A stretch of DNA of 58,720 nucleotides, taken from the NCBI GenBank assembly GCA_964466455.1, contig CAYXNL010000004.1, positions 1 to 58,720 of the forward strand, read 5' to 3'. The stretch comes from an uncultured Thiotrichaceae bacterium. GTDB lineage: Bacteria; Pseudomonadota; Gammaproteobacteria; SZUA-229. The notes under the pieces are model-generated. The model did not search any database and was not told the origin of the DNA. It worked only from the letters and a program-made list of their open reading frames with translations. The translations under genes and the position numbers were made by a program. Below are positions 8,041 through 58,720 of this stretch, in pieces (position 1 is the first letter of the stretch; every line of letters begins with the position of its first letter).

Positions 8041-11000
8041 ATGAAAGATTTACTTAAGCTCATCAAACAACAGGGTCAAAATGAAGATTTTGACGCGATT
8101 AAAATCAGTCTTGCATCGCCACAACAGGTGCTGTCATGGTCATTTGGTGAGGTAAAAAAACCTGAAACCATTAACTATCGTACCTTTAAACCGGAACGTG
8201 ACGGGCTTTTCTGTGCCAAAATTTTTGGCCCGGTAAAGGACTATGAGTGTTTATGTGGTAAATACAAACGGCTGAAGCATCGCGGTGTCGTGTGTGAAAA
8301 ATGTGGTGTTGAAGTTACCCAGTCTAAAGTACGCCGTGAACGAATGGGGCACATTGACCTGGCTAGTCCGGTTGCCCATATCTGGTATCTGAAGTCCCTG
8401 CCATCACGCATTGGTCTGCTGCTTGATATGACCCTGCGTGAAATTGAACGAATTTTATATTTTGAAGCCTTCGTTGTGATCGAGCCGGGTCTGACGACAC
8501 TGGAAAAAGGCCAGTTACTAACTGATGAAACCTATCTCGAAGCGATTGAAGAGCATGGGGATGAATTTGATGCACGGATGGGCGCAGAAGCAGTTCATGA
8601 AATGCTGAAAGCGCTGATACTGGAGGAGGAGGCCATTAAAATTCGTGAGGATATGGGGGCAACCAAGTCGGAGACCAAACTTAAACGCCTGGCCAAACGC
8701 CTGAAACTGGTTGAGTCATTTATTGCTTCCGGTAACCGTCCGGAATGGATGATTATGACCGTACTACCAGTTTTGCCACCTGATTTGCGCCCACTGGTAC
8801 CTCTCGATGGCGGTCGTTTTGCCACCTCTGATCTGAATGATTTATATCGTCGTGTGATTAATCGTAACAATCGCCTCAAGCGCCTGCTTGAGCTGTATGC
8901 ACCGGATATCATTGTACGTAATGAAAAACGTATGTTACAGGAATCAGTGGATGCATTGATGGATAACGGTCGTCGCGGACGTGCTATTACCGGTACTAAT
9001 AAGCGCCCGTTAAAATCCCTCGCGGATATGATTAAAGGCAAGCAAGGTCGCTTCCGTCAGAATCTGTTAGGTAAGCGTGTTGATTATTCCGGGCGTTCTG
9101 TCATTGTGGTTGGACCAACGCTTAAGTTGCATCAGTGCGGGCTGCCGAAAAAAATGTCACTGGAGCTGTTCAAGCCTTTTATCTTTAACAAATTGCTCCG
9201 CCGCGGACTGGCAACCACTATCAAAGCGGCAAAGAAAATGGTGGAAAAAGAAGGCCCGGAAGTCTGGGATATTCTTGAGGAAGTTATCCGCGAACACCCG
9301 GTTATGCTTAACCGTGCGCCTACTCTACACCGTCTGGGTATTCAGGCTTTTGAACCAATGCTGATTGAAGGCAAGGCCATTCAATTACATCCGTTAGTCT
9401 GTACCGCTTTCAATGCCGATTTTGACGGCGACCAGATGGCGGTACATATACCCCTGTCGATTGAAGCACAACTGGAAGCACGTACCCTGATGCTGGCAAC
9501 GAATAATATTCTATCACCGGCATCCGGTGAACCTATTATCGTCCCTTCACAGGATATCGTACTGGGTTTGTACTATATGACGCGTGAATCAATTAATGTT
9601 AAAGGTGAAGGTATGGTCTTTGCCGACATTGATGAAGTGTACTGTGCCTTTAATAATGATCAGGCGCATCTACAGGCTAAAGTTAAAGTACGTATTTGTG
9701 AACGGCTCTTCAATGATGACGGTGAACTGGAAGAGTGTTATAAAATTGTTGATACTACAGTTGGGCGTGCCATTCTGTCTGAAATACTGCCCGCTGGACT
9801 GCCCTATGAACTGGTGAATCAGAATCTGGATAAAAAAGCCATTTCTAATCTAATTAATTCCTGTTACCGCCAGGTAGGTTTGAAAGAAACCGTTATTTTT
9901 GCTGATCAATTGATGTACACCGGGTTTCGTTATTCAACCCGTGCCGGTATATCTATTTGTATCAGCGATATGGTTATTCCTGATGAGAAGGTACCGTTGT
10001 TATCAGCCGCCGAGGCAGAAGTGAAAGAGATTCAGAATCAGTATACCTCCGGTCTGCTTACCAACGGTGAACGTTATAACAAGGTGGTTGATATCTGGTC
10101 CCATGCAAATGAAGCGGTTGCCAAAGCAATGATGGACAAACTCAGCGTGGTTGAAGTGGAAGATGCTGAAGGAAATATTGTGAAGCAACCATCGTTTAAT
10201 AATATTTTTGTTATGGCAGATTCCGGTGCAAGGGGTTCGGCCGCTCAGATCAGGCAGCTTGCTGGTATGCGTGGTCTGATGGCCAAACCGGATGGTTCTA
10301 TTATCGAAACACCAATTACCGCCAATTTCCGTGAGGGACTGAACGTATTGCAGTATTTTATTTCTACTCACGGTGCCCGCAAAGGTCTGGCAGATACCGC
10401 ATTGAAAACTGCAAACTCCGGTTACCTGACACGTCGTCTGGTAGATGTTGCACAGGACATGGTTATTTTGAAGGAAGATTGTGCTACTGAAAAGGGAATG
10501 TTAATGCAGTCCATGATTGAAGGTGGTGATGTCATTATGCCACTGAGTGAACTGGTACTCGGTCGTGTGGTAGCAAGAGACGTACTAAATACCGATGATG
10601 AAGTGCTGATTCCACGTGACACACTACTCGATGAGCAGTGGGTTGAGCAGCTTGATGAGCTGGGTATTGATGAGATTTTTGTACGCTCGGTCATTACCTG
10701 TGAGAACCTGCATGGTGTCTGTTCCATGTGTTATGGCCGCGATCTGGCGCGGGGACATCGGGTTAATCACGGGGAGGCAGTAGGGGTTATCGCCGCACAG
10801 TCCATTGGTGAGCCGGGAACACAACTTACCATGCGTACCTTCCATATCGGTGGTGCTGCCAGCCGGTCTGCAGCAGCTAATAGTATCAGTGTGAAGACTA
10901 CCGGAATGATAAATCTGCATAATATTAAAGTGGTTAGACAAAATGCCGGTGGACTGGTTGCCGTATCACGATCCGGTGAGCTTGGCATCGTGGATGAGCA

Positions 11001-42281: not shown

Positions 42282-44441
42282 TCAGCCGGACATTTCAGTG
42301 AAATCATAATCCATCTCCGGTGCTGGTTCCTGCAGGAAATTACCCTGTATAAAGTTAATCCCCATGCCCCATAAAATAGACAGGCTGGCGGCATTAGGTA
42401 CATGCTGCGCGATGGTGAGTTTACCTAACTCAGCAGATCTGTCGGCAATCATCTTAATATGTTCCTGATTCTGTATGTTTTCCGCCAGATCTTCCATATG
42501 CCCCGGGTCTATGCGTAAATAGTCTGCATCAATATGCTGTAATAACTGGAATGGGTTAGAGCCGGAGCCGAAGTCGTCGAGGATAAAACCGCATTTTAGC
42601 TTCTTTAACTGCTGTGACAGTTCTCTGGCATGTTTCAAATTGGTTACGGCTACACTTTCTTTTACTGCAAAAGTCAGTGAGTTTGCTGGTAACTGTTTTT
42701 CTTTTATCTGGTAACTCAGCCAGTCAATCAAGGTATTATCTTTGATTGATGCAGCAGATAGTTTGAGAAAAAGCAATGTTTCCTTTCCCTGTTTACAACG
42801 GTTGGTAAAATGTGTGATGGCCTGATAAAACACCCAGCGGTCGATGGCTGTTGCCATACCAATTCGTTCTGCTGCAGGAAAAAAATCCTGTGGCATAATG
42901 AGTTTGGGAACACCTTTTTTCTGGTTTGTATTTCTGAGTCGTACGAATACTTCATAGCGTTCTTTTGTATCACCGTGTAGACTGACAATCGGCTGAAAAT
43001 GCAGGATGAAATTATCGTTCTTCAATGCACCGGTTAGTTGTTGCTTGAGGCAACTATCAACCTCCTGGCGTGTCAGTTCTCCTTTTTCCGGTTCATGAAT
43101 ACAGAACTGATTAACCCCTTTTTCGGTGGCTTCCTGCAATGCTTTTTCAACACTTGCCAGAGCCGTGTTATATTCCAGTGCGTCGGTGTCAATTAACAAG
43201 GCACCGATACTGCAGGTAGTGTTAATACTATTATTATTTATTTTATAGGTAAGCGTTAGCATAATCTCCTGTAGTTGAGCAATCAGTTTTTCAGTATCTG
43301 TCTTACTATGATTCTCGGCAATACAGGCAAAAGTGGAATGGGTGTATCGGGCAAGCGTGATCTGTTCATCCACAACCGAATTAAGTGCTTTGGCCGCTGC
43401 GGTAATATATTTATCGGCATCCGATATGCCAACGGTTTTTTTTATGGCATCAAAATTATCAAGCTGTATCTCCATAACGACTGCAGGCTGCTCATCCTGT
43501 GCGTGATGATTAATAACATCCTTGAGAGTTTCAATAAAATACTGGCGATTGAAAATACCCGTCAACTGGTCTTTCTGACTTAGCAGCTTTAACTGTTTTT
43601 CCAGTTCTTCTGAGTCGATGGTTTCTTTACGGATAATAATCTGTATACAGGATTCGTTATCAATCCGTGCTGGTGACAATTCCATTTTACCTTCAAATTC
43701 TTCTCCATCAGGTTGACGTAACCGGGTTTGCAGGGTTTTTGAGCCGTCTTCGGTTTTTGCATAGTTACGTAAAAATTTCTTGAATGGCTCACGCTGATCT
43801 TTTGCAATCATATCAAGTACAGGGAGTCCTTCAAGCTCGTCAGACTCATTAATACTAAAAAGTTCAAGGTAGGACTGATTGGAATAGATATGCATACCTT
43901 CATGGATGTAGGCAATCGCATCTCTGGAGCTATCGAGTAGTGAGTTACAGCGACGTTCTGTTTCGCGCAACGATTTCCCCATGGTTTCTGTTTTTCTGGT
44001 CTGGATTAGTGCCTGCTGTTCGCGGTCAATGACCAGTAATAAATGCTCGATATTATCAAAAGAAACTAGATCAACTGCACCGTTGTGCATAGCGTCGAGA
44101 ACAGAGGAATTCATCCCTTTTCGATCAACGGCTATGACACGGCTTAGCGAACAGGTCGGCTGTTTTTTTAGACACTCACAGACCTGTTTCAGATTAATCA
44201 GTTCCATGCCGTTAAAGTAGATCACCAGATCGGGAGGGTGCGATTCAGTGGCCTGAATTAGATCCTCTTCATCCTCCACACGAGAAGATCTCGCCGTATA
44301 ACCTGTTCCCCGCAGGGAACTGACGATACGCTCTTCCGTATCAAATGAATCATCAATAATAATTAAGTTAACTGATTTTTCTTTCACAATATTCCCGATA
44401 TAGGTTGAACATTCATGCGCCTGGTCAGTATTTAGATACAT
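42282..44441 (-). CDS. fimX: FimX-like pseudo-REC-PAS-degenerate GGDEF-EAL c-di-GMP receptor
   Basis: REC lacks the acceptor Asp (PDLVIYF); GGDEF replaced by YTHST; EAL motif EVF, DDFGSG present, AQHV in place of AEGV; GAGG RBS upstream of the ATG. Confidence 0.8.
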   Translation of the reverse strand: MYLNTDQAHECSTYIGNIVKEKSVNLIIIDDSFDTEERIVSSLRGTGYTARSSRVEDEEDLIQATESHPPDLVIYFNGMELINLKQVCECLKKQPTCSLSRVIAVDRKGMNSSVLDAMHNGAVDLVSFDNIEHLLLVIDREQQALIQTRKTETMGKSLRETERRCNSLLDSSRDAIAYIHEGMHIYSNQSYLELFSINESDELEGLPVLDMIAKDQREPFKKFLRNYAKTEDGSKTLQTRLRQPDGEEFEGKMELSPARIDNESCIQIIIRKETIDSEELEKQLKLLSQKDQLTGIFNRQYFIETLKDVINHHAQDEQPAVVMEIQLDNFDAIKKTVGISDADKYITAAAKALNSVVDEQITLARYTHSTFACIAENHSKTDTEKLIAQLQEIMLTLTYKINNNSINTTCSIGALLIDTDALEYNTALASVEKALQEATEKGVNQFCIHEPEKGELTRQEVDSCLKQQLTGALKNDNFILHFQPIVSLHGDTKERYEVFVRLRNTNQKKGVPKLIMPQDFFPAAERIGMATAIDRWVFYQAITHFTNRCKQGKETLLFLKLSAASIKDNTLIDWLSYQIKEKQLPANSLTFAVKESVAVTNLKHARELSQQLKKLKCGFILDDFGSGSNPFQLLQHIDADYLRIDPGHMEDLAENIQNQEHIKMIADRSAELGKLTIAQHVPNAASLSILWGMGINFIQGNFLQEPAPEMDYDFTEMSG

Positions 44442-44488
44442 AGGTACCTCTATTAATATCTCATCAATGTAATTTTGATGACAGACTC

Positions 44489-46354
44489 CTAGAGTGATGA
44501 CCAGATTTCATCAAAATCATCTTTTGTTTGCGATGACTGTTGTTTTTTTGCCTGCTTTTTAATCCGCGTTACCTCATCCGTGTTGGTGTAATGAAACTGG
44601 GTGAATGAGCCGGTATTTTCCTCCGCCATCCCTAATGTGATGGCTAGTTTTTTATCAACTGCTGCCACAGTGAGTTTATCATTTGTTTTAAATGCGTGAG
44701 CAGGTAATATAATCGTTGCCTGTTGTTTAAGTGCTTTTATCCCCGGCAGGATTAAACATTCAAATGGATTTTCATTTGGGCGGTTGGCTCTTTGCGCTGA
44801 TGCGGTAATTAGTCTGGTTGAGATAACCTGTATACCAATTTCGAGGCCATTTTTATGAGTAAACTGTATCCACCGTATAATACCGGTTCGCCACTCATAT
44901 TTGTTATCACCGACATATTCGTGAAGCGCAATAATTTCACCAATTTGAGCACGAGATGTGTCATCAGAATTCCAGCGCAGGCAGTATCCCCCGGCGCTGA
45001 TGTTAACAATCTCCCAGTGTGATTCCAGATTGTTTTTATATTTATCCAGTGATTTTTTATGATTTTTCTTCTGTTCCTGCTCGTAGGCATCAGTGAGTAC
45101 TGTGCCACGGGCAACCATATCCCAGGAATTATTTGCTGTATTTTCTACCTCCGTACGTGCCATGTGGCCACTCAGAGTAGACGCGGTTGAATCATCATGA
45201 ATTGTTTCCAGGGTAAAATCGAGATCATTCTTGACCGTTTGTTCAGTACGGATAATACCCGATCTGGTATCGACTCCTTTCGCTTTTTTATTGAGGGCGT
45301 TTAATATTTTAACGATCGTGCTTAAGCCAATGGCTATATCAATGTTTCCCTCACTCTTCGAGCGAGTGAAACGACGTTTTGGATTTGTTCCCCAGTTAGT
45401 TAGCAGTACCTGTAATGACGCGATGGATATTTCGTTACCAATAGTCGGTTTTTCCTGGTTACTGGTGGACAGGTCAATTAGCTTTTGAGTGTGCGCGACA
45501 AGTTGTGTGGTATTAAGGTAGCGTTTAATATCTTCTTTTTGCAGGTCGTCTTTGTTCAGGTAATCCGGTGGTGCGTCTTTTTCACTGTGAATACAGAAAA
45601 TTTTATCAATCTGGCTTGTCTCTACGTCATTTTGATCTGGCTCACATTCAATTACGCCATATTTTTCCCAGTCTGCAAGTTTGTCGAAGACGCGTTCGCA
45701 ATCGCTTTGACTTAAGGCAATGGGACGCGCCAGCGCAAACAGTAAAATTTGTTTGTAACAGCTTCCAATGGTAACCGTTTTTTGCTCCATTTCGTTATCA
45801 CTAACGGCTATATTCAGTAGTCCTCCGGTTTCAGCAAAGAGATATATCTGGTGCAAATCGCGCCATAGACCACCCGGTGGTGGTGCGTATATCTCACTGG
45901 ATCGTAATACAAGTTCAGCTAAGTAATGAATGGCTCGGCAACATGCCGTAGCCTGAATTTTTGCCCGGGCTCTTGCGGTGATTGTTATATTGGTACGGTT
46001 TGTTGTATCAGACAGAATAATTTTATAACCGTAGGCTATTTCCTGTAGTAATGACTGGTTCAGATTGATTATTTTTTTACTTTTTTCGGGCAACGGCAGA
46101 GTGCGGTTGATGAAGTATTTTTTCAGGTTGTTAAAAATTTCTCTTACCGGTTCGCGTAGCATTTCCATATTTTCAAGACGTGCTTTTACCGGAATTGTCT
46201 GCCGGTTAATATCTCGCAGTATCTGATAAATCTGTCTGGTTAGTTCTCCCATATTAGCGTTGGGTAGTCTGGCCAGCAACTTTTTCAGCTTACGTGGCTG
46301 ACTGGGTACTGCGCTGTCTACAGGAGTGTTTTGTTCAGGTATTAGTAATTTCAT
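44489..46354 (-). CDS. fimW: FimW-like PilZ-type c-di-GMP receptor
   Basis: RxxxR (RRFTR, aa 327-331) and NxSxxG (NISAGG, aa 451); directly upstream of the fimX-like gene, as I recall for P. aeruginosa fimW-fimX. Confidence 0.62.
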   Translation of the reverse strand: MKLLIPEQNTPVDSAVPSQPRKLKKLLARLPNANMGELTRQIYQILRDINRQTIPVKARLENMEMLREPVREIFNNLKKYFINRTLPLPEKSKKIINLNQSLLQEIAYGYKIILSDTTNRTNITITARARAKIQATACCRAIHYLAELVLRSSEIYAPPPGGLWRDLHQIYLFAETGGLLNIAVSDNEMEQKTVTIGSCYKQILLFALARPIALSQSDCERVFDKLADWEKYGVIECEPDQNDVETSQIDKIFCIHSEKDAPPDYLNKDDLQKEDIKRYLNTTQLVAHTQKLIDLSTSNQEKPTIGNEISIASLQVLLTNWGTNPKRRFTRSKSEGNIDIAIGLSTIVKILNALNKKAKGVDTRSGIIRTEQTVKNDLDFTLETIHDDSTASTLSGHMARTEVENTANNSWDMVARGTVLTDAYEQEQKKNHKKSLDKYKNNLESHWEIVNISAGGYCLRWNSDDTSRAQIGEIIALHEYVGDNKYEWRTGIIRWIQFTHKNGLEIGIQVISTRLITASAQRANRPNENPFECLILPGIKALKQQATIILPAHAFKTNDKLTVAAVDKKLAITLGMAEENTGSFTQFHYTNTDEVTRIKKQAKKQQSSQTKDDFDEIWSSL

Positions 46355-49255: not shown

Positions 49256-49511
49256 AAGTAGTCGAGAGATTGCTCCTGAGAAAAGTATTCCGCGATGTTG
49301 CGGACAGGTAAAAAAAGCCAGTTTTATGCTGCGATTGTTGTCCCTGATCATTAAAATTGTGTTTTACAGTAGAATTTATTGAATAGATAGGGTAACTTCG
49401 CAGTAATTGTTTTTTGTAATGAATCTGGAAATGCCTTGCAATGATATAACCCACAGGGCATTTTTTCGAGTCAGTGCCTGCAATATATATTTGGCAATTA
49501 AATTTATGTAA

Positions 49512-50642
49512 ATGAACATGAAGGTAGCTTTCAGCATGTCGATTAGAAAAATAACAAAATATTCTCTTCTCCTTTTCTCTTTTATCTCGATTGTTGCACA
49601 GGCTGACAGTGTTATCACGGTGGGTGTCGCGCCCCATGGTGGTTATGTCATTCTCGGTGGTAGTGTGATTCCGTTAAAAGAGGTCACTCTTTCGGCACAA
49701 ATGCCTGGTCGAGTGGTATCAATTGCCGGGGATGAAGGGGACAGGTTTAAAGCGGGTACGGTTTTGCTCAAGCTGAATAACGAAGATTTACTGGCAAAGA
49801 AAACGGCCGTTGAAGCGCAACTGGCCTCGGCGAAAGATGCGGTACAGAATGCACGGGTGCAATATAACCGGGAATTATGGAGCCCGCGTGTTTATAACCC
49901 TCGTCCAATGTCGGGGATGGCGATGCCTTCCATGTTTGACAGTTTTTTTAACAGGAATAGTTTTTTTGGTGGTAATGGCAATAAAAGCATCGAGCGACAT
50001 GCAGATCTTGTTGGCCAGGGTTCACAGGTTGTGGCAGCCCGTTCACGGGTACGTGAGGTCGAATCAAAGTTGCGCGAAGTTGATGCCAAGCTACGTGATA
50101 CCGTTGCCATCGCACCATTTGACGGTATTATTATGAAAAAACAGGTTGAAATTGGTGACACCGTTCAGCCGGGGCAGCCATTACTGATTTTTTCCTATAT
50201 AAAATTTCTGCGTATTCGTGCGGATGTTCCCGCACGTTTAATGCCGGGGCTTAGAAAAGGCATGATAGTTCCCGCTATGCTGGATGTGGGTAATACACAG
50301 GTTAATGTTCGTGTTGCGCAGATTTCACCGGTAGCAGATAAAACACGCCATACAGTGACCGTCAAGTTTGATTTACCCGAGGGTGTTCCCGGTGGTGTGG
50401 GTACTTATGCAGAAGTAATGATCCCTGATGTTAATTCACCTATGCGTGCTCTGCCGGTTGTCCCTAATGCTGCAATACAGAGGAACGGCAGCCTGCCTTC
50501 CGTCATGGTACTCAATCATAATAATAAACCGGAAATGCGCTTGATTCGTATTGGTGAAAAAGTGGGTGAGGATAGCGTTACCGTGCTTTCAGGTTTGAAA
50601 CCCGGTGAGCGGATCCTTGTTCATGGCCATAATGGACAATAG
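49512..50642 (+). CDS. RND periplasmic adaptor (HlyD/MFP family) with hairpin-tip insertion
   Basis: Split lipoyl motifs (SAQMPGRV...GDRFKAG and APFDGII..VEIGDTVQPGQPL), coiled coil, cleavable signal AQA-D; start may be 49536. Confidence 0.92.
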   Translation: MNMKVAFSMSIRKITKYSLLLFSFISIVAQADSVITVGVAPHGGYVILGGSVIPLKEVTLSAQMPGRVVSIAGDEGDRFKAGTVLLKLNNEDLLAKKTAVEAQLASAKDAVQNARVQYNRELWSPRVYNPRPMSGMAMPSMFDSFFNRNSFFGGNGNKSIERHADLVGQGSQVVAARSRVREVESKLREVDAKLRDTVAIAPFDGIIMKKQVEIGDTVQPGQPLLIFSYIKFLRIRADVPARLMPGLRKGMIVPAMLDVGNTQVNVRVAQISPVADKTRHTVTVKFDLPEGVPGGVGTYAEVMIPDVNSPMRALPVVPNAAIQRNGSLPSVMVLNHNNKPEMRLIRIGEKVGEDSVTVLSGLKPGERILVHGHNGQ

Positions 50643-50725
50643 TTATCTGGTCTCAACTTCAGATAGTTGCAGGTGTTCGTGGCGGCAGGACGAACAGAGT
50701 TTAATGGTAAAAAATAATGACTAGT

Positions 50726-50764
50726 TTCTTATGACCGATTCTTATGACCGATTCTTATGACAGA
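50726..50764. repeat. 13-bp tandem repeat spanning the RND start codon
   Basis: TTCTTATGACCGA x2 plus TTCTTATGACAGA. Confidence 0.95.
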
Positions 50765-53700
50765 TAATAAAGAAAAAAAATCACTGGATGTTGTAGAAGA
50801 AAAGCTTAAATCCGTGCCAGGAGAGCCTGAAGCTGTGGAAAAAGAAGTGCATTTAGGTGTCGCGGGTAATGTTGCACGAATTTTTATCAGCTCACCATTA
50901 ACACCCATGCTTATCATTCTGTTTATTCTGATGGGCCTTGCGGGTATTGTTTTTACCCCGCGGCAGGAAGACCCACAGATAACCGTTCCAATGGTTGATA
51001 TTTTTGTCAGATATCCAGGTGCCTCTGCGCAGCAGGTCACTGCACTGGTGGCGAAACCACTGGAACGCATCATGAGTGAGATGAGTGGTGTGAAACACAT
51101 CTATGCTGCAGCGCAACGGGATTCGGCTATTGTTACTGTGCAGTTTAAGGTGGGGCAGAAGATGGGTCCCTCACTGACCAAGCTATACAGCAAACTCAAC
51201 TCCAATAAAGACAAGATGCCGCCGGGGGTTACCAGCTATATTGTTAAGCCAAAAGATATTAATGATGTTCCTGGACTGACCTTAACGCTCTGGTCTAACC
51301 AGGTGAACGATGCCTCATTGCGTCTGGTCGCACTGGATGTATTGCAGAAACTAAGTGAAGTACCCAATTCTAACCAGGGGTTTGTTGTCAGCGGGCGTAC
51401 CGAACAGTTGCGGGTAGAAGTTTTACCAGAGAAGCTGGCAGGCTATGGTATCACCTTGCAGCAGATAGCAAATACCATACGCCAGGCAAATAGTGAAGAA
51501 AGCGTGGGCAATATCGAAGCCTGGGATAAAAGCTTTAAGGTATATACCGGTTCTTTTCTGAGAACAGCGCAGGATGTTGAAAATGTTGTTGTAGGCATCA
51601 AGGATGGTCTCCCTGTATACATACGTGATGTTGCTAATGTTATTAACGGGCCGTCTGAAGTAACCAAACTGGTCACGCAATACACCGGGCCCGCCAGCAA
51701 GGAAAAAGAGGTTGCTAATGGGGCTCAGGCAGTAACGATTGCTATTGCCAAGAAAAAAGGTAGTAATGGTGTTTCTGTCTATAAAGCATTACTGGCAAAA
51801 GTTAACGCTATAAAAGGTGTCATTATTCCCGATAATGTTCATGTCTTTGTTTCTCGGGACTACGGGGTGACAGCAAATAACAAGGTAAATGAGCTGATCT
51901 TCAAGTTATTTGTCGCCACCGGTATTGTGACCCTGTTGATCTGGTATGCGCTGGGTTGGCGCCCTGCCGTGGTGGTGCTGATTGTTATCCCGATTGTTAT
52001 TCTGTTTACCGTATTCAGCGCGATGATATTGGGGCAGAGTATAAACAGAGTGAGTCTGTTCGCCCTGATTTTTTCCATTGGCATTCTGGTTGATGACGCG
52101 ATTGTGGTGATTGAAAATATCTATCGCCACTGGTTGATAAAAGGGGATATGAGTGAAAAAGTATCTATTGATGCAGTGCGGGAGGTAGGTAATCCAACTA
52201 TTCTGGCTACCTTCACGGTAATTGCAGCGCTGCTGCCAATGGGAGCGGTGCGCGGCATGATGGGGCCCTATATGCTGCCTATTCCCATATTAGGCACGGT
52301 CGCCATGCTGGTTTCACTATTTGCTGCTTTTGCGTTTACCCCGTGGCTGGCTAACAGGCTCAAACCCTCAATGGAGCAGTTGCGTAAATCGGAGGAAAAG
52401 GAACATCGAGCTAATGATCGACTGGCCAGATTTTTCAGGAGAATGATCTGTCCGCTGGTGGATAATAAAAAACTGGGTTATGGCTTTTTAATATCACTGT
52501 TTGTACTGTTCTTCGCCAGTTGTGCAATGTTTTATACAAAGGCTGTATCGGTAAAAATGCTGCCACTGGATAATAAGGCTGAATTTGATATTGTCATTAA
52601 TTTTCCTGAAGGCACATCCTTAATTGATACCGCTAATTTAGCAGCTACCCTGGCAGGTGAAGCGAGGAAATTTAAAAATGTTGTTGCATTGCAGTCCTAT
52701 GTAGGGACAGCTTCACCGTATGATTTCAACGGTCTGGTTCGTCATTATTATCTGCGTGATAAACCCTGGCAGGCAGATATTCAGGTTGAACTGACCGATA
52801 AGGATAAACGAGACGTTACCAGCCATCAAATTGTTGAGAAAATGCGTAAGGTTATGGCTCCTGTTGCGAAGGCCGCAGGTGCCCGCATACAAATGGTAGA
52901 GATGCCGCCGGGGCCGCCGGTGTTGCAATCTGTGGTGGCGATAATTTATGGACCGAATGCTAAAACACGCAGGAAATTTGCCCATGATATGACGCTTATG
53001 TTCGAAAAAGCGCCGAGTATTACTGATGTTGATAATTTAATGCAGGATCCGTATGAAATTTGGCGCTTTGAAGTGGATCGCGACAAGGCGTTGCGTGAAG
53101 GTATCAGTGTTGATGCCATTAATCAGACATTGGCTATGGCCGTCGGTGGCTACAGACTTGGTGATATTAAACGTGGCTCGGTGGTTGACCCTACCTATAT
53201 CGTGCTACAGGTACCTCAGTCGGTACGCTCCGAGTTCTCCAGACTGGGGACAATTCCGGTACAGGCCGCCAATGGAGCGCTGGTGCCATTGTCAGAACTG
53301 GGTACTTTTGTGAAGGGCATTGAACAGGATGTTATCTACCAGAAAGATTTGCGTAACGTTGAATTCGTGACCGGTGCCAGTGCAGGCAAGCTGGCTGCAC
53401 CAATATATGGCATGTTCCAGGTCGATGATATGCTCAAGAACTATATTGCGCCCGATGGCGTGAAGGTAGCCCATGGGTTTATTCACGGTGGTTATTTTGG
53501 GCCACCGGCTAACAGTAGAAAGTCAGCGTTTGAATGGGGTGGTGAGTGGACGGTGACGTATGAAACCTTCAGGGACATGGGGGGCGCATTTCTAATTGCC
53601 ATGGTGCTGATTTATATGCTGGTTGTGGTTGAGTTTAAAAATTACATTTTTGCCTCAATTATTATGGCACCGATCCCGCTGACACTTATTGGTATTATTC

Positions 53701-54854
53701 CGGGTCACTGGTTACTGAATGCGAGCTTTACCGCCACATCCATGATTGGCTGGATTGCGCTATCCGGCATTATTGTGCGTAACTCAATATTACTGGTGGA
53801 TTTCACCCGCCATGAAGTACTGCGAGGTATTGATGTACGTGATGCGGTCATTAACGCATGCCGTGCCAGAACACGTCCCATTCTGATTACCGCACTGGCA
53901 CTGGTTGGCGGCTCCAGTGTTATTCTGACTGACCCGATCTTCCAGGGGATGGCTATTTCCTTACTGTTCGGTGTTATTGTTTCAACGATATTAACCCTGT
54001 TTATTATTCCGTTGGGTTGTATCTCGGCTAAAAATGCCTTTGCAGTTTGCCCCGCTGGTTCAGTAAAAGCAACGGTAGAAGAAGAATATATTGATAGCCT
54101 GGAGCCGCCCTCATGTGAGTACAAAACACCGGTGTGGATGAGTGTTTATAGCGCTGTTGTCAGCGTCGTGAACTGGATCTTTGTTATTGTGAAAATGTTT
54201 TATAACCTGGTGCGGCTGCTTATTAGCGTAATCAGGGAAAAGCTTACTTCCAGTCATGCAACACCACCAACCGAGCCTGGAACGCCCGGTTCTTCGTCAC
54301 CCACCCCGGTACCCCCCGCACCACCCGTACCCTCTACGCCTGCGGCTTCTACAGACGTGCATTCTACGGTTAAGACTAAGACTGCGGAGTCAGATGCATC
54401 GGCGACAGCGTCCGTAGCTGATTTGGCTACAGAAAAAACAGAATCTACGGATATAAATCAGGAGAAAATAGCTAAGCCAGGCGTTAACCATGAGGTTGTA
54501 AAAAAAGCAATGGTTAAGAAAGCAATGGTTAAGAAAGCAATGGTTAAAAAGGGAATTGTTAAGAAGGAAACGGTTAAGAAAAAGGAAGGTAAAACAGTAC
54601 CGAAAAAGAGTGTGGTGAAGAAAAAAATATCGGTGAAAACATTACCGGTAAAGAAAACAACAGGCGAGAATAGTCCAGTTAAAAAAGGCCGGCCTGAAAA
54701 AGTTCCAGGTAGAAAAATAACGGTTAAGAAAGTACCGGCTAAAAAATCACCATCAGGCAAACGTAGAGGCATCCGCTTAAAAGTTGATAACGATCAGATG
54801 CCTGATAACCATAAGTCTGATAACCATAAGTCTGATAAAGATAGTGGAGAATAA
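50757..54854 (+). CDS. RND permease (AcrB/AcrD/AcrF-like) with about 280-aa C-terminal extension
   Basis: TM4 GILVDDAIVVIENI, TM10 GIIVRNSILLVDF (Arg at the AcrB K940 position), TM11 RTRPILITA; 1365 aa. Confidence 0.93.
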   Translation: MTDNKEKKSLDVVEEKLKSVPGEPEAVEKEVHLGVAGNVARIFISSPLTPMLIILFILMGLAGIVFTPRQEDPQITVPMVDIFVRYPGASAQQVTALVAKPLERIMSEMSGVKHIYAAAQRDSAIVTVQFKVGQKMGPSLTKLYSKLNSNKDKMPPGVTSYIVKPKDINDVPGLTLTLWSNQVNDASLRLVALDVLQKLSEVPNSNQGFVVSGRTEQLRVEVLPEKLAGYGITLQQIANTIRQANSEESVGNIEAWDKSFKVYTGSFLRTAQDVENVVVGIKDGLPVYIRDVANVINGPSEVTKLVTQYTGPASKEKEVANGAQAVTIAIAKKKGSNGVSVYKALLAKVNAIKGVIIPDNVHVFVSRDYGVTANNKVNELIFKLFVATGIVTLLIWYALGWRPAVVVLIVIPIVILFTVFSAMILGQSINRVSLFALIFSIGILVDDAIVVIENIYRHWLIKGDMSEKVSIDAVREVGNPTILATFTVIAALLPMGAVRGMMGPYMLPIPILGTVAMLVSLFAAFAFTPWLANRLKPSMEQLRKSEEKEHRANDRLARFFRRMICPLVDNKKLGYGFLISLFVLFFASCAMFYTKAVSVKMLPLDNKAEFDIVINFPEGTSLIDTANLAATLAGEARKFKNVVALQSYVGTASPYDFNGLVRHYYLRDKPWQADIQVELTDKDKRDVTSHQIVEKMRKVMAPVAKAAGARIQMVEMPPGPPVLQSVVAIIYGPNAKTRRKFAHDMTLMFEKAPSITDVDNLMQDPYEIWRFEVDRDKALREGISVDAINQTLAMAVGGYRLGDIKRGSVVDPTYIVLQVPQSVRSEFSRLGTIPVQAANGALVPLSELGTFVKGIEQDVIYQKDLRNVEFVTGASAGKLAAPIYGMFQVDDMLKNYIAPDGVKVAHGFIHGGYFGPPANSRKSAFEWGGEWTVTYETFRDMGGAFLIAMVLIYMLVVVEFKNYIFASIIMAPIPLTLIGIIPGHWLLNASFTATSMIGWIALSGIIVRNSILLVDFTRHEVLRGIDVRDAVINACRARTRPILITALALVGGSSVILTDPIFQGMAISLLFGVIVSTILTLFIIPLGCISAKNAFAVCPAGSVKATVEEEYIDSLEPPSCEYKTPVWMSVYSAVVSVVNWIFVIVKMFYNLVRLLISVIREKLTSSHATPPTEPGTPGSSSPTPVPPAPPVPSTPAASTDVHSTVKTKTAESDASATASVADLATEKTESTDINQEKIAKPGVNHEVVKKAMVKKAMVKKAMVKKGIVKKETVKKKEGKTVPKKSVVKKKISVKTLPVKKTTGENSPVKKGRPEKVPGRKITVKKVPAKKSPSGKRRGIRLKVDNDQMPDNHKSDNHKSDKDSGE
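54498..54587 (+). repeat. 15-bp coding repeat, VKKxx pentapeptides in the RND tail
   Basis: VKKAM x3, VKKGI, VKKET, VKKKE. Confidence 0.95.
54802..54838 (+). repeat. 15-bp tandem repeat (DNHKS) at the RND C-terminus
   Basis: CTGATAACCATAAGT x2 plus CTGATAA. Confidence 0.9.
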
Positions 54855-54858
54855 TTTA

Positions 54859-55584
54859 ATGTATGCTAAAGGTAAATTTCTGTCATTATCATGTCTTGTC
54901 TTAGCATTATTGCCTTCGGTTGTAATGGCGACACAGGAACAGGATAAAGCAGGTGCAGCACTGAAAGCGATTGATTCGACAAGGGCGGGGGCAGCGACGA
55001 CTCATACAGTTATAAAACCGGCGGGAACTAAAAATAGTGTTACCGTCAGAAGTGCCAGAAGTAATAATATGCCAATGAAATTTCCACCATGGCCGCCCCG
55101 GCAATCTTTTAACCATAACATGTTACCGCCTCCACCACCCGGGCCTTATATGTCTACGGCATTAAGTAATACGCCGACGAAAGTTCCAGTATCGAATCGA
55201 CCCGTGTATTTACCACCAGTAATGCACTCACCACCGGTAATGAATGAAGGTGCGGAGCCGATGGCAATGTTCAGTCCAGATCGGCCCTGGCCAGGTGATC
55301 GGGTAAGGCAATGGAAGCCTGAAAATGGCGGCTATCATTACGCCGGGTCTGCTTTTCCACCACAATATCCACCCGTTAAAGAAAATGGGTACCGCCCATA
55401 TCAACCAGCGCTGCCCCCGAGGTTTGTCAGGTCACCAGGTAGAATGCATACCAGGATGCCATCCAGCCGCCACAGGTACAATGGTTCGGCCATGATGCAA
55501 CCGGGTATGCCGCCACGGTTTCAACCACCGGCTTATCCTTCTGCACCACTTCAGCCATACCATCGTTCACAAACCGGATATTAA
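54859..55584 (+). CDS. Secreted proline-rich low-complexity protein
   Basis: GGAGA RBS 8 nt before ATG 54859; signal peptide ending VMA; LPPPPPGPYMSTAL, PDRPWP, many PP pairs. Confidence 0.78.
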   Translation: MYAKGKFLSLSCLVLALLPSVVMATQEQDKAGAALKAIDSTRAGAATTHTVIKPAGTKNSVTVRSARSNNMPMKFPPWPPRQSFNHNMLPPPPPGPYMSTALSNTPTKVPVSNRPVYLPPVMHSPPVMNEGAEPMAMFSPDRPWPGDRVRQWKPENGGYHYAGSAFPPQYPPVKENGYRPYQPALPPRFVRSPGRMHTRMPSSRHRYNGSAMMQPGMPPRFQPPAYPSAPLQPYHRSQTGY

Positions 55585-55589
55585 ATAGT

Positions 55590-56393
55590 TTGATGGGTAT
55601 ATCACGGTTTTTTTTGTTTTTTGTCGTATTTTTACTGTCACTAATGATGAACACTGCGGCAGTTGCGGGAGATCGTATTGCCGGACGTAGCGATCAGCGG
55701 ACTCGGCCATTGAATTCGGCAGAGTTTATTCTGGCGGCAACGGATAACCCATGGGTGCCGTCGCCAACACAACGGGCAGACGGCTTTCCTCATTACTATA
55801 ATGCAAAAAAAGATAACCCCTTCCAGCCTCAGCAAATGAACCGGTCACCGATTTATAACAGTAGAAATTCATCACATCCTTATTACAGATACCCGATGCA
55901 ACCACGTTATGTGACGCCAGCTATCCTGAAATCAATCAGAAAACAGCAAATGCGTGCACAGCAAATACTGCCATCATGGCAGCGATATCCATACCCATAC
56001 CAAAGATATCCATACCAAAAGCGTAATTACTGGCAATATAATCCATCACCTAACAGATATGGAAGAGGTGGTGATCGCGGCAATAGCCTTGGAAATAACC
56101 CTGGGAATAGCCCTGAAAATAGCCCCGAAAATAGCTATGGCAACTGGTCTGCGAACCCTGCATTACCGGTTAGTCCCGGTACCCTGCTGGATAAATCATT
56201 ATTAGATGGCAACGGGGGCTTGCCGCTTACCCCGGACATGACAGCAATAGAGGGTATTTCACCATTAAACGCCAATGAACCATTACCGCCTGAATTATCA
56301 GGGAATAATTATGACAGTTCGGGTCGTTATTTTGATCCCATGGCATTTAATCCCTCGTCAATGTTCGGTCCTTTTGATAATTTTGCGCGGTAG
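55590..56393 (+). CDS. Secreted Tyr/Pro/Asn/Gln/Arg-rich low-complexity protein
   Basis: Signal peptide ending AVA; QRYPYPYQRYPYQ; (G/E)NS(P/L/Y) repeats; 5 bp after the previous stop. Confidence 0.78.
   Translation: MMGISRFFLFFVVFLLSLMMNTAAVAGDRIAGRSDQRTRPLNSAEFILAATDNPWVPSPTQRADGFPHYYNAKKDNPFQPQQMNRSPIYNSRNSSHPYYRYPMQPRYVTPAILKSIRKQQMRAQQILPSWQRYPYPYQRYPYQKRNYWQYNPSPNRYGRGGDRGNSLGNNPGNSPENSPENSYGNWSANPALPVSPGTLLDKSLLDGNGGLPLTPDMTAIEGISPLNANEPLPPELSGNNYDSSGRYFDPMAFNPSSMFGPFDNFAR
56079..56138 (+). repeat. 12-bp coding repeat (GNSL GNNP GNSP ENSP ENSY)
   Basis: ggcaatagcctt ggaaataaccct gggaatagccct gaaaatagcccc gaaaatagctat. Confidence 0.9.
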
Positions 56394-56645
56394 TCTGTAA
56401 TGCCTGAACACTGCATAGCGGTGGTCGGCACATAGCGTATTTGGCTAATATACCAATCTTTATTAGTGTAATCATAAGGTTAAGTTATTAGCGTTCCTGT
56501 GAAATATTCGGGGTAAGTGGTAAAACACCCCGATCTTTCAGGTAAATAGCAGCGTCATATTGTCAGCTTATGCGCTTACGTTCATAGTGTAGAATAGTGT
56601 TGATGACATAACGATAATAAATGATTTTACAGGCAGGTAATTTTT

Positions 56646-57275
56646 ATGTTGACAGTTGTAGGTAATTTGAAGGGTGGAACAGGCAAAAGTACAGTTGCAT
56701 TCAACCTTGCAGTATGGTTAGCATACGACAAACAAGGGGTGAAAGCTTTCGATTTAGATCCACAATGTACATTGCTTGATGTTTGTGAAGTACGAGAAGA
56801 AGACGGTTATGAGCCGATATTTGAGGTGTCTTCCGATGTAGATGAAATGGTTACCCTGGCCGCAGACAAAAAATACAGGCAACCGATTATTGTCGATATG
56901 AGTGCAAGTAATATGCCTGCAATGGAAACGGCCATTTCGGTTGCTGACAGAATACTGATACCGGTACAACCGAGTCAGGCAGATATCTGGTCAACGCAAC
57001 GGTTTTTAAAAATTGTCGCGCAGAATCTGAATACAGATAAAAATACAGAAGTGCTTGGTTTTATTAATCGTGCAGATACACATCGGGGTATTCGGGAAAC
57101 AGAAGAAGCACAGCAGGCATTGCAGGTGTTGCAGGGTGTTAAGGCGCTGGATATCCGGCTATATCAGCGAACCGCCTATCGACGCTCATTCAGCGAGGGG
57201 CTGGGTGTATTTGAACTCGACCCGATGGGAAAGGCATCGAAGGAAATGAAAAAACTGGCGGTGATGCTCGATTAA
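56646..57275 (+). CDS. Short orphan ParA/MinD-family ATPase
   Basis: Deviant Walker A KGGTGKST, A' DLDPQ, Walker B IIVD; 209 aa, no N-terminal HTH, no parB adjacent. Confidence 0.93.
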   Translation: MLTVVGNLKGGTGKSTVAFNLAVWLAYDKQGVKAFDLDPQCTLLDVCEVREEDGYEPIFEVSSDVDEMVTLAADKKYRQPIIVDMSASNMPAMETAISVADRILIPVQPSQADIWSTQRFLKIVAQNLNTDKNTEVLGFINRADTHRGIRETEEAQQALQVLQGVKALDIRLYQRTAYRRSFSEGLGVFELDPMGKASKEMKKLAVMLD

Positions 57276-57348
57276 GATACTTGACTACGGTATTGCGCGG
57301 TCTACTTATCCAATAAATTCAGGGTACAGGATTGAAAGAGGTTTATGT

Positions 57349-58344
57349 ATGAAATTTTTTCGCTGGTTATTAAGTAATATATTATTAATTATTGTTGTGG
57401 TCGGACTGATCTATACCTATGTGTACTGGGGACATCTGACTGGCGCTGATACCCCGGGAGGGAGGGTAATTACCTATTTATCTGGTGAGTCAGGCTTCGT
57501 CCATAATTTTGTTAATGGGATTAAAGAAAAAAACAGCAATCGGGAAAAGCACTCACCGTCTAATCAGCATACTGCAACGCCGTCAGTGGCTTTACATGGG
57601 GAAAATAACTCAGATCATTCGATCACAACATCCGGCTCAGCACCAGACAATCATGCTACTCCGGAAAATGTTTCTGCCGGGAAGGTAACCGCTGAGGCAA
57701 AGGAAAAAGAAAAAGAAAATAACGTTAACGTTGTTTCACGACAGCCGCAGCAGAGTGATAATACCGGCAATGCTTCATCTGCTGTATTACCACCCAAAGA
57801 AGCCGCGCATAACGCTAATAGTACCCTGGCGCAACAACCGGTTGCTACAAAAGAAAAGAATACTATTCCCCGGAAAAAAGGTCTTTCACCTTCCGCTCAG
57901 GCAAAGGTAGAACCACAGAAACCTGAACAGCAAGGTCATTCTAAAATAGCCAGATCAGGTGTTTTTGTCAGTCCAGACGTTGAGTCCGCACTGGAAAAGG
58001 CCGGTGCTAAAGGGGAGGTGGCAACATTGACACCGACCGCAATACGTAAAGTCTGGATCGAAGCCAGAAAATCCTTTTATAAGCATGACTATATGCAATC
58101 AGAGAAGGACTATAAACGTGTTATAGCGGCGACAAAAAATAATTATGATGCCTATGGAGAACTGGGTAACGTTTATTTTTATCAGGGTAAAAATGATAAA
58201 GCCGCCGCCACTTACATGAAAGCTGCGCTTATAATGATAGATTCAGGGCAGAGTAACCGCGCGCGCAGCTTACTGGGCCTGATGCACTATCTCAGTAAGG
58301 ATAAAGCGAAATTGCTTGAGCAGAAACTTGAGGCAGCTCAATAA
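57349..58344 (+). CDS. Membrane-anchored protein with disordered linker and C-terminal TPR domain
   Basis: N-terminal TM (LLSNILLIIVVVGLIYTYVYW), long S/N/A/E/K-rich linker, TPR-like YDAYGELGNVYFYQGKNDKAA. Confidence 0.8.
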   Translation: MKFFRWLLSNILLIIVVVGLIYTYVYWGHLTGADTPGGRVITYLSGESGFVHNFVNGIKEKNSNREKHSPSNQHTATPSVALHGENNSDHSITTSGSAPDNHATPENVSAGKVTAEAKEKEKENNVNVVSRQPQQSDNTGNASSAVLPPKEAAHNANSTLAQQPVATKEKNTIPRKKGLSPSAQAKVEPQKPEQQGHSKIARSGVFVSPDVESALEKAGAKGEVATLTPTAIRKVWIEARKSFYKHDYMQSEKDYKRVIAATKNNYDAYGELGNVYFYQGKNDKAAATYMKAALIMIDSGQSNRARSLLGLMHYLSKDKAKLLEQKLEAAQ

Positions 58345-58437
58345 CAGACACTGTCCAGAGAGCTATAATGTTTCACGCGGTACGTAATTTATTTATACCT
58401 GATATTATGAAACGAGGCGCTGCTGGCGATTTTTAGT

Positions 58438-58720
58438 ATGACCGATAAAAAAATGACAGAATCAATAAAAGCCGAGTCAACCGATACCCCGGCTGAAAAA
58501 ACAACAGATACTGCCAACACCGTATCTAATGTAAAAACGGAGATAAAGGTAGAAAAAAAAGCGGAGGGTAAAAAAATCTCAGCGAAAAGATCGGTGGCTA
58601 AAGCATCGACAGCAGAGGCACCGTCTAAAAAGAAGGCGGTGAAGAAAGATCCCGTGAAAAAAGGCCCCGTGAAAAAAGGCCCGGTGAAGAAAGACGCAGT
58701 GAAGAAAGATGAGGTGAAGA
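58438..58720 (+). CDS. Lys-rich histone-H1-like protein with VKKxx repeats, truncated by window end (not in ORF track)
   Basis: Hand translation, open to the edge: MTDKKMTESIKAESTDTPAEK...SKKKAVKKDPVKKGPVKKGPVKKDAVKKDEVK. Confidence 0.8.
   Translation, partial: MTDKKMTESIKAESTDTPAEKTTDTANTVSNVKTEIKVEKKAEGKKISAKRSVAKASTAEAPSKKKAVKKDPVKKGPVKKGPVKKDAVKKDEVK
58639..58720 (+). repeat. 15-bp coding repeat, VKKxx pentapeptides
   Basis: gtgaagaaagatccc gtgaaaaaaggcccc gtgaaaaaaggcccg gtgaagaaagacgca gtgaagaaagatgag gtgaag. Confidence 0.95.

Follow-up and report, generated by a model that had tools for sequence, protein, structure and literature searches.

Gene content of the locus

The 58,720-nucleotide stretch of DNA analysed here, hereafter termed the window (contig CAYXNL010000004.1 of an uncultured Thiotrichaceae bacterium), carries at its end a gene cluster which combines a transporter of the resistance-nodulation-division (RND) family with secreted low-complexity proteins, a ParA-type ATPase and membrane-anchored proteins, and which may serve to build and place sulfur storage globules. 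Seven consecutive genes between positions 49512 and 58720 had been listed in a preliminary description made from the sequence alone, and all seven were confirmed to be present on the + strand. The first (49512..50642) encodes a periplasmic adaptor of the membrane fusion protein (MFP) type of 376 amino acids (aa) with a signal peptide (TIGR01730, 157 bits; HlyD_D23), with a Met/Phe/Gly-rich insert at the tip of the alpha-hairpin (49875..50009). The second (50757..54854) encodes an RND permease of 1365 aa, whose core (residues 1-1092) belongs to the ACR_tran family (PF00873) and is extended by a C-terminal tail. This tail is composed of an additional hydrophobic or amphipathic helix after transmembrane helix (TM) 12 with subsequent basic residues (54132..54233), present in all tail-bearing pumps, a low-complexity spacer which is first Pro-rich and then Lys-rich with a 15-bp tandem repeat encoding KAMVK (54258..54758), and an end peptide, KRRGIRLK (54759..54782; family motif [KR]RGI[KR]LK), which is a candidate for the contact with ParA. 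Two genes for secreted low-complexity proteins with signal peptides follow, as had been described: a disordered Pro/Met-rich protein (54859..55584), whose true ATG lies at 54859 rather than at 54856 and which contains PPPPGPY at nucleotides 55126-55149, and a Pro/Asn/Tyr-rich protein (55590..56393). Downstream of these are located the genes for a ParF-like ATPase of the ParA/MinD family (56646..57275; 209 aa, KGGTGKST) and for a protein that is anchored at its N-terminus and carries, after a disordered linker, a tetratricopeptide repeat (TPR) domain of two to three repeats at its C-terminus (57349..58344; TPR_16 and other matches). The last open reading frame (ORF; 58438..58720) runs off the window and represents the Lys-rich N-terminus, with a 15-bp repeat encoding VKKDP, of a 376-aa membrane protein.

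The gene order beyond the window end was obtained from a sister assembly (L070; loci are designated by L and a number), which was reached by an exact look-up of the ParA protein, the same look-up with the TPR protein giving no match, and which shares 98.97% identity with the window along 7964 nt. The cluster indeed continues there. The last window ORF, previously described as a gene for a VKKxx-repeat protein, is the start of the gene for the 376-aa protein (7713-8843 of L070), in which the Lys-rich N-terminus precedes one TM helix and heptads rich in Met, Asn, Ser and Thr, and it is followed by a gene for a 494-aa dynamin-like GTPase (8853-10337), beyond which lie psd, oppositely oriented, and further, unrelated genes. 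The cluster therefore comprises at least nine genes, with that of the dynamin-like GTPase as the last one.

Conservation and distribution of the cluster

A scan for the pump with one genome per species yielded 64 loci, which were compared by tblastn and by clustering of their ORFs. The recurring order is adaptor, long RND protein (1220-1440 aa), one to four secreted low-complexity ORFs, ParA, TM-TPR protein (in many loci), an anchored DUF302 protein (in some loci), a Met-rich coiled-coil protein (termed Met-coil protein below) and the dynamin-like GTPase. A gene-neighbourhood search had been proposed as a check on the cluster, and this order recurs in about 33 genomes; a recurrence in more than 30 genomes far exceeds what chance would give. 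Carriers include Thiothrix (at least ten species), Thiolinea, Cocleimonas, Thioalkalivibrio, Ectothiorhodospiraceae, metagenome-assembled genomes (MAGs) labelled Leucothrix and many gammaproteobacterial MAGs, and look-ups of more distant pumps added a matching gene set in Endothiovibrio diazotrophicus and in a 5.2-Mb genome (L069). In Magnetococcales, the gene set is present with no dynamin gene nearby. The flanking genes are specific to the lineage (type II secretion system pseudopilins, ApbE, ArgD, psd) and thereby set the boundaries of the cluster. The adaptor gene adjoins the RND gene in 54 loci, and the matrices of pairwise identity of pump, adaptor, ParA and dynamin correlate with each other at 0.62-0.86. 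In one MAG clade (L037:14094-16400, L040 and L059), an unrelated 404-aa ORF and an additional ParA-like gene of greater length (336 aa) separate the pump gene from the usual parA, and the dynamin gene lies upstream of the adaptor gene and not at the end.

Metagenomes of marine sediments and vents contain the system in abundance, and its components are annotated in public records in generic terms throughout ("efflux RND transporter", "AAA family ATPase", "dynamin family protein"). The named carriers are overwhelmingly sulfur oxidisers that are known to form zero-valent sulfur. As judged from gene content and order, this is a conserved gene cluster of sulfur-oxidising bacteria, and no description of an RND-ParA-dynamin cluster was found in the literature searched.

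The pump core and its adaptor

The core of the window pump matches ACR_tran with an E value of 9.8e-138 over residues 41-875, together with a second stretch, and it scores 424 bits with NF033617 (RND_permease_2), which is below the subfamily cutoff of 1250. The acidic pair of the proton relay in TM4 can be read from the sequence and is intact (VDDAIV, residues 445-450); the position of the TM10 lysine is apparently occupied by Arg, as judged by eye and not by formal alignment. The nearest PDB matches, MdtB, MexK and TriC, reach about 210 bits (E values of 1e-59 to 1e-61) versus 1500-2090 bits for comparisons within the family in metagenomes, and because of this gap the pump family is considered to be remote from every characterised TolC-dependent pump, which agrees with the initial view that the RND protein would not group with them. 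The score with TIGR00914 is 228.8 bits, short of the HME cutoff of 701 and below the scores of the HAE-type models. An identity as a copper or HME pump was considered and rejected, since the model scores do not fit it. The lack of a TolC-like gene had been noted from the start, and no member of the TolC/OEP family was detected among the window ORFs scanned or in the precomputed Pfam assignments of L002 and L067-L070; the scan was not exhaustive, and an outer-membrane factor (OMF) encoded elsewhere is possible.

The hairpin insertion of the adaptor, likewise part of the original observations, is a real feature of the family: about 45 residues with the consensus MPGMG(M/L)PSMFD are placed between the two hairpin helices, and they are kept in the adaptors of tail-bearing and tail-less pumps alike, as seen in the 18 aligned sequences. 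With the HAE1 tripartite pumps (MdtBC, MexK, TriABC, AcrAB-TolC), the system shares the 12-TM RND core, the two periplasmic loops, the Asp-Asp pair in TM4 and the adjacent adaptor. It differs from them in the predicted cytoplasmic tail of 130-360 residues with a conserved end peptide, in the conserved Met-rich loop at the adaptor hairpin tip, where TolC-docking adaptors have a tight turn, and in that no OMF gene was seen in the cluster loci.

The pump tail and the ParA protein

In the window pump, about 270 residues follow TM12. All pumps aligned have the same plan in this region: an acidic or Gly-rich loop, a hydrophobic to amphipathic helix followed by a cluster of Lys and Arg residues, a spacer of 100-300 residues and the nearly invariant end peptide. 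The hydrophobicity of the helix varies (KD19 of 0.9-2.6); probably the helix lies at the membrane surface or is re-entrant, so that the tail stays cytoplasmic. The spacer differs between lineages, being Pro/Lys-rich in the window clade, formed by KAEK repeats in Cocleimonas-like members, of the ER/K type in L052 and Ala/Gln-rich in Thiothrix. The composition of the tail is therefore not a conserved property; Lys-rich tails are specific to the window clade, where they would act as spacers. The basic, Lys-rich pump tail had initially been regarded as a link to the nucleoid, an idea that does not hold in view of this variation, the conserved element being the terminal RRGIRLK. A total of 43 pumps carry the motif [KR]RGI[KR]LK, which is absent from all of the roughly 1000 other ORFs.

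Among the loci with enough downstream sequence, to which the following counts are restricted, ParA is encoded in 33 of the 36 with the end peptide versus 0 of the 15 without it. The three peptide-bearing loci without ParA are L008, L055 and L058, of which L058 is explained by an assembly gap. In the Thiothrix MAG L060, the pump tail lacks the peptide and the position of parA is taken by a gap of only 550 bp, while the TPR, Met-coil and dynamin genes are kept. The TPR gene is absent from six peptide-bearing loci (L006, L015, L032, L033, L068, L069). Because the TPR gene is missing from these six and because parA and peptide were lost together in L060, ParA is identified by this pattern as the component that tracks the end peptide. 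The TPR protein was also considered as an adaptor of ParA or a receptor of the tail peptide, and it had been proposed as the anchor of ParA; this candidate was abandoned, as the TPR domain is most likely periplasmic, is missing from the six motif-bearing loci and is kept in L060 without the motif.

The ATPase itself carries the deviant Walker A motif with the signature lysine (LKGGTGKST, residues 8-16) and matches CbiA, AAA_31 and MipZ; with NF041546 it scores 135 bits and does not reach the cutoff of 180. Among solved structures, ParF of TP228 comes closest (E value of 1e-9), and the protein is 46-87% identical in 33 loci. It had been described as lacking a ParB partner, and no ParB-type domain was found in the cluster genes of the window or of related loci. 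Partners of ParA-family proteins act through charged, disordered terminal peptides (PMC10241942). By analogy, we infer that the tail could serve as a cytoplasmic "fishing line" which presents the candidate ParA-contact peptide. The orphan ParA/MinD systems McdA-McdB of carboxysomes, PpfA-TlpT of chemoreceptor clusters and ParF-ParG of TP228 resemble the present one in that the ATPase is small, ParF-like and equipped with a deviant Walker A motif, in that it is encoded without ParB beside its presumed cargo, and in that the peptide regarded as the candidate partner element is short, basic and placed at the end of a disordered region. Unlike in those systems, the ATPase would here act on an integral-membrane RND pump as its cargo and, by way of the pump, on a periplasmic structure, the candidate peptide is located at the C-terminus of the cargo itself and not at the N-terminus of a separate adaptor, and the cluster includes a dynamin-like GTPase.

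Secreted, TPR, Met-coil and dynamin-like proteins

The first secreted protein of the window contains 18% Pro and 6% Met, the second one 12% Pro, 10% Asn and 7% Tyr, and neither has a match in Pfam or NCBIfam. In 20 loci, the ORF that directly follows the tailed pump contains a P[PA]..GP[YF] motif, which is never present after a tail-less pump; the alignment of the first secreted protein with its counterpart in L054 is restricted to this motif, the remainder having diverged. Relatives of the second secreted protein are confined to the nearest loci, L002 and L003 (28-35% identity). A homology of this protein to ORF c55 of L054 was considered but found no support, as no similarity was seen.

For the TPR protein, the charge bias in 30 family members predicts an N-in orientation with a periplasmic TPR domain. 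The Met-coil protein has as its conserved part a TM helix and predicted periplasmic heptads of Met, Asn, Ser and Thr with Met at the core positions. Its Lys-rich N-terminus is confined to the window clade; thus, the repeat on which a role as an H1-like linker had been based is present, but it is not the conserved part of the family. Short Met/Phe-rich strings of similar appearance occur in periplasmic parts of several proteins (MPSMFDSFF, SSMFGPFDNF and MMNDVMPF; MNxFxP(F/W) in other lineages), namely at the adaptor tip (49875-50009), at the C-terminus of the second secreted protein (about 56340-56390) and at the end of the heptads of the L070 Met-coil protein. They may represent a shared interaction motif or just a shared composition.

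The dynamin-like GTPase is recognised by Dynamin_N with 50.7 bits in the L002 orthologue (cutoff 27), and the L070 copy is also listed with this domain; G1 (GTFSAGKS), G3 (DSPG) and C-terminal hydrophobic helices can be read from the latter. Its closest solved sequences are EHD4 and EHD2, with E values of only 1e-3, while the protein is 70-83% identical over more than 120 metagenomic clusters. Features in common with BDLP, DynA, IniA, LeoA and the EHD ATPases are a Dynamin_N domain with G1 (GxxxxGKS), G3 (DxxG) and an NQID G4-like motif as well as C-terminal hydrophobic helices. In contrast to these proteins, the predicted cluster dynamin is shorter (about 480-520 aa), is highly conserved and is invariably encoded together with the pump/ParA set. 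Neither NCBIfam nor Pfam contains a model specific to the dynamin subfamily, the Met-coil protein or the PPPGPY protein.

Accessory proteins

SCP2 and LolA-like folds carry hydrophobic ligands, and proteins of both kinds are predicted to be encoded in some of the clusters. In seven loci, those of Magnetococcales and Endothiovibrio among them, the adaptor gene is directly preceded by a gene for a cytoplasmic 130-aa protein that is 60-78% identical across classes. Its structural model has an SCP2 fold (pLDDT 86; Foldseek match to 2cx7 with an E value of 3e-7 and TM-scores of 0.73-0.79; UbiJ-SCP2), and relatives are named SCP-2 family proteins by NCBI. A periplasmic DUF4412 protein above the Pfam cutoff is encoded in L067 and L068, and its model matches RseB/MucB, LolA-superfamily, LolB, EPDR1 and LprG folds (Foldseek E values of 5e-7 to 1e-3 with low TM-scores). 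Searches of the PDB by sequence only with profiles of the SCP2-like and the DUF4412-like proteins gave no match. Because of these accessory SCP2 and LolA-like folds, the pump family is tentatively tied to a hydrophobic cargo such as zero-valent sulfur.

Links to sulfur globules

Five of the clusters contain, between pump and ParA, a secreted Gly/Tyr-rich ORF that scores above the gathering cutoff of 26.7 bits of the Pfam family SGP (PF17228): L054 (29.6 bits), L014 (31.8), L032 (33.7), L033 (36.8) and L052 (32.9). As the ORF of L054 has orthologues in L007 and L024, SGP proteins are present in at least seven loci; matches below the cutoff were obtained in L067 (17.5 bits) and L015 (16.1 bits). 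The Sgp proteins SgpA-SgpD of Allochromatium vinosum are likewise Sec-exported, of low complexity and Gly/Tyr-rich, and true SGP members are encoded inside clusters orthologous to that of the window, whereas the window's own secreted proteins are Pro/Met-rich and Pro/Asn/Tyr-rich without an SGP match. In A. vinosum, sgpD adjoins a gene for an HAE exporter (PMC10386293). No link of a pump, ParA or dynamin to Sgp proteins was found in the literature searched.

A second connection is provided, in Thiotrichaceae, by the gene neighbours of tail-less pump paralogues; these paralogues are 1080-1122 aa long and have no ParA or dynamin neighbour. In a maximum-likelihood tree, the copies linked to SQR nest inside the Thiothrix clade with tail and ParA and are therefore recent offshoots of the same pump. 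In L012 and L055, the tail-less pump gene precedes genes for a secreted rhodanese and a DUF302 protein. In Azospira suillum, a sulfide-induced operon comprises an unknown gene and genes for an RND pump, SQR and an adaptor (PMC5358917). This operon (Dsui_3440-3443 of strain PS) and the Thiothrix paralogues, arranged as SQR, MFP, RND and secreted low-complexity protein, are alike in gene content, and the operon differs from the tail-bearing clusters in having no tail, ParA or dynamin.

Three of the loci with tail-less pumps show further details. In Thiothrix fructosivorans and T. lacustris (L031:7476-14117 and L044:7445-14151), genes for an SQR-like flavoprotein, an adaptor, a tail-less RND protein and a secreted Gly/Asn/Met-rich protein lie on one strand, followed by PsiE and cytochrome bd genes. 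The secreted protein is of the Gly/Asn/Ser type with PNM repeats and a Met/Pro/Gln-rich end; it has no Pfam SGP match and has a D-F-x4-KGKG motif in common with true SGP members. In L016:562-6538, a tail-less RND gene is followed by genes for a tetrahaem cytochrome of the NapC/NirT type, a dihaem cytochrome c and a twin-arginine translocation (TAT) flavoprotein of the FccB type (FccAB-like), a set which suggests that an electron route from sulfide oxidation is encoded alongside the pump.

Genomic surroundings, repeats and promoter region of the window copy

Upstream of the cluster, the window contains the unrelated housekeeping genes epmB, efp and epmA. On the - strand at 42282-46354, a gene for a GGDEF-EAL protein with a PAS domain stands beside one for a 621-aa FimW_N/FimW_C protein (a PilZ-type c-di-GMP receptor); in L001, L003 and L004, which are the closest relatives, this pair is likewise situated upstream of epmB-efp-epmA, and it is probably unrelated to the cluster.

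Tandem Repeats Finder reported 15-bp tandem repeats at 54504-54581 (in the pump tail) and at 58639-58720 (in the last ORF). Assemblies of this organism in public archives are interrupted at the 15-bp repeats (window 54504-54581 and 58458-58600), and 58458-58600 is covered by two variant contigs which differ at seven positions; on account of these variants and breaks, the repeat regions are taken to differ between strains or copies. Public runs containing the region were of DNA type or of unknown type only, so that no transcripts were obtained, and Logan contigs break at the 15-bp repeats as well.

Upstream of the adaptor, the sequence TGGAAATGCCTTGCA at 49420-49445 resembles the sigma-54 promoter TGGCAT-N5-TTGCA, being one base short. 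The relatives L002 and L003 have a TGGCAT-N5-TTGCA site and a divergent gene for a sigma-54 activator. Control of the window copy by sigma-54 was considered and rejected, since its match is one base short and the activator gene is missing.

Proposed function and alternatives

The conservation of the cluster and the co-occurrence of tail peptide and ParA very probably reflect real functional units. As to their function, we favour, with a probability of about 0.45, the interpretation that the cluster is a conserved envelope-spanning module for building and placing sulfur storage globules. According to this proposal, the RND/adaptor pair would take up a hydrophobic cargo from the inner membrane in a proton-driven manner, most likely zero-valent sulfur formed by SQR or FccAB, otherwise a hydrophobic component of the globule envelope, and would deliver it into the periplasm rather than through a TolC channel. 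There, the cargo would join the secreted proteins, i.e. the PPPGP[YF] protein, the lineage-specific low-complexity proteins and, in several lineages, true SGPs. The ParF-like ATPase would grip the cytoplasmic tail peptide and thereby space or partition the pump complexes, with the attached periplasmic deposit, along the cell, and the membrane-anchored dynamin-like GTPase and the Met-coil protein may give shape or stability to the inner membrane where it surrounds the deposit. An extended version, which we consider rather doubtful, would be that of a dedicated, genetically encoded organelle machinery, in which the RND protein loads zero-valent sulfur from the inner membrane into a periplasmic globule coated by the secreted proteins of the cluster, nucleoid-bound ParA positions and partitions this globule across the membrane via the RRGIRLK tail and the dynamin shapes an invagination that houses it.

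Several points weigh against the proposed globule module. RND pumps are not known to move elemental sulfur. In some members, the helix after TM12 has a KD of 2.6, which is enough for a true TM helix and would place the tail in the periplasm, beyond the reach of ParA, and L008 and L055 carry the tail motif without ParA within 10 kb. The secreted proteins of the window (54856-55584 and 55590-56393) have no SGP match even at E values up to 10. Genes for the SCP2-like, LolA-like (DUF4412), DUF302 and SGP proteins and for the sigma-54 activator are missing from the window copy, which is a reduced variant of the cluster. Some carriers are MAGs of unclear physiology (L069 with heterotroph-like neighbours, the Leucothrix-labelled MAGs), the taxon sample leans towards relatives of the query, and the locus counts are not phylogenetically independent. 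Finally, bacteria of the SUP05 group store sulfur but reportedly do so without a dynamin (PMC6509183).

The alternative that survives best is the ParA-organised export of another hydrophobic envelope component (lipid, hopanoid-like or quinone-like), which pump, SCP2-like and LolA-like carriers would move from the cytoplasm to the outer envelope, the SGP neighbours being a consequence of shared ecology. The SCP2 and LolA-like folds and the lack of a visible OMF gene suit this explanation as well, the window clade has no SGP genes, and psd adjoins the cluster in this clade. It leaves unaccounted for that SGP genes were inserted within the cluster in at least four separate lineages, that paralogous pumps stand beside SQR-like, FccAB-like and rhodanese genes and that the named carriers are almost all sulfur oxidisers, and we regard it as unlikely.

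Less probable still is a system for sulfide or soft-metal stress, in which the pump removes polysulfides, metal sulfides or Cu(I)/Ag(I) with the aid of Met-rich periplasmic partners and the dynamin repairs the membrane in the manner of IniA and DynA. Known bacterial dynamins do act in membrane stress responses, and Met-rich elements are found at the adaptor tip, in the secreted proteins and in the periplasmic coiled coil; however, the pump scores as HAE-type and not as HME, no genes for an OMF, CusF or a metal sensor were seen, and neither a ParA-recruiting tail nor SGP coat proteins would obviously be needed for such a task. The Azospira SQR-RND operon was interpreted by the authors of that study as a detoxification response, and its deletion caused no defect in the rate of sulfide oxidation (PMC5358917).

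A further explanation, to which we assign a similarly low likelihood, concerns the ParA step alone and is compatible with the sulfur globule proposal: ParA might be a fixed assembly or regulatory subunit of the pump complex, comparable to BcsQ of cellulose synthase or TadZ of Tad pili, and control where or whether the pump assembles. The ATPase has partial matches to BcsQ (TIGR03371, E value of 4e-11) and VirC1, and the tail peptide could simply dock ParA dimers. Yet the closest solved relative is ParF, a partition ATPase that uses the nucleoid, and a very long spacer of variable length and composition is better suited for reaching out from the membrane than for tight docking. That the pump belongs to an ordinary multidrug efflux operon with ParA, TPR and dynamin genes as unrelated neighbours, as the generic public annotation of the parts would imply, is highly improbable and already contradicted by synteny and co-variation: two classes share the gene order, tail peptide and ParA vary together, the loci showed no OMF gene and the family is remote from all characterised pumps.

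The initial interpretation as a machine related to an inclusion, for example a sulfur globule, rather than to efflux is partly supported: it fits the comparative evidence, with SGP proteins encoded in orthologous clusters and SQR, FccAB-like and rhodanese genes beside tail-less paralogues, whereas the window's secreted proteins are not SGPs and the mechanics then envisaged for tail, TPR and Lys-repeat protein found no support.

Significance for sulfur-oxidising bacteria

Of the globules of sulfur bacteria, only the coat proteins (Sgp) are known. For the transfer of zero-valent sulfur from SQR or FccAB into the protein-coated periplasmic globule, and for the sizing, spacing and inheritance of globules, the cluster offers a concrete set of candidate genes, which is accessible to deletion in the cultured Thioalkalivibrio versutus and in several Thiothrix isolates. 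If the link between ParA and the pump tail is true, a ParA ATPase would for the first time be seen to organise an integral-membrane transporter and, through it, an extracytoplasmic structure, and the RND pump would gain a role in organelle biogenesis rather than efflux. Even if the link to sulfur fails, the invariant tail peptide, ParA and the highly conserved dynamin would mark an unstudied envelope system.

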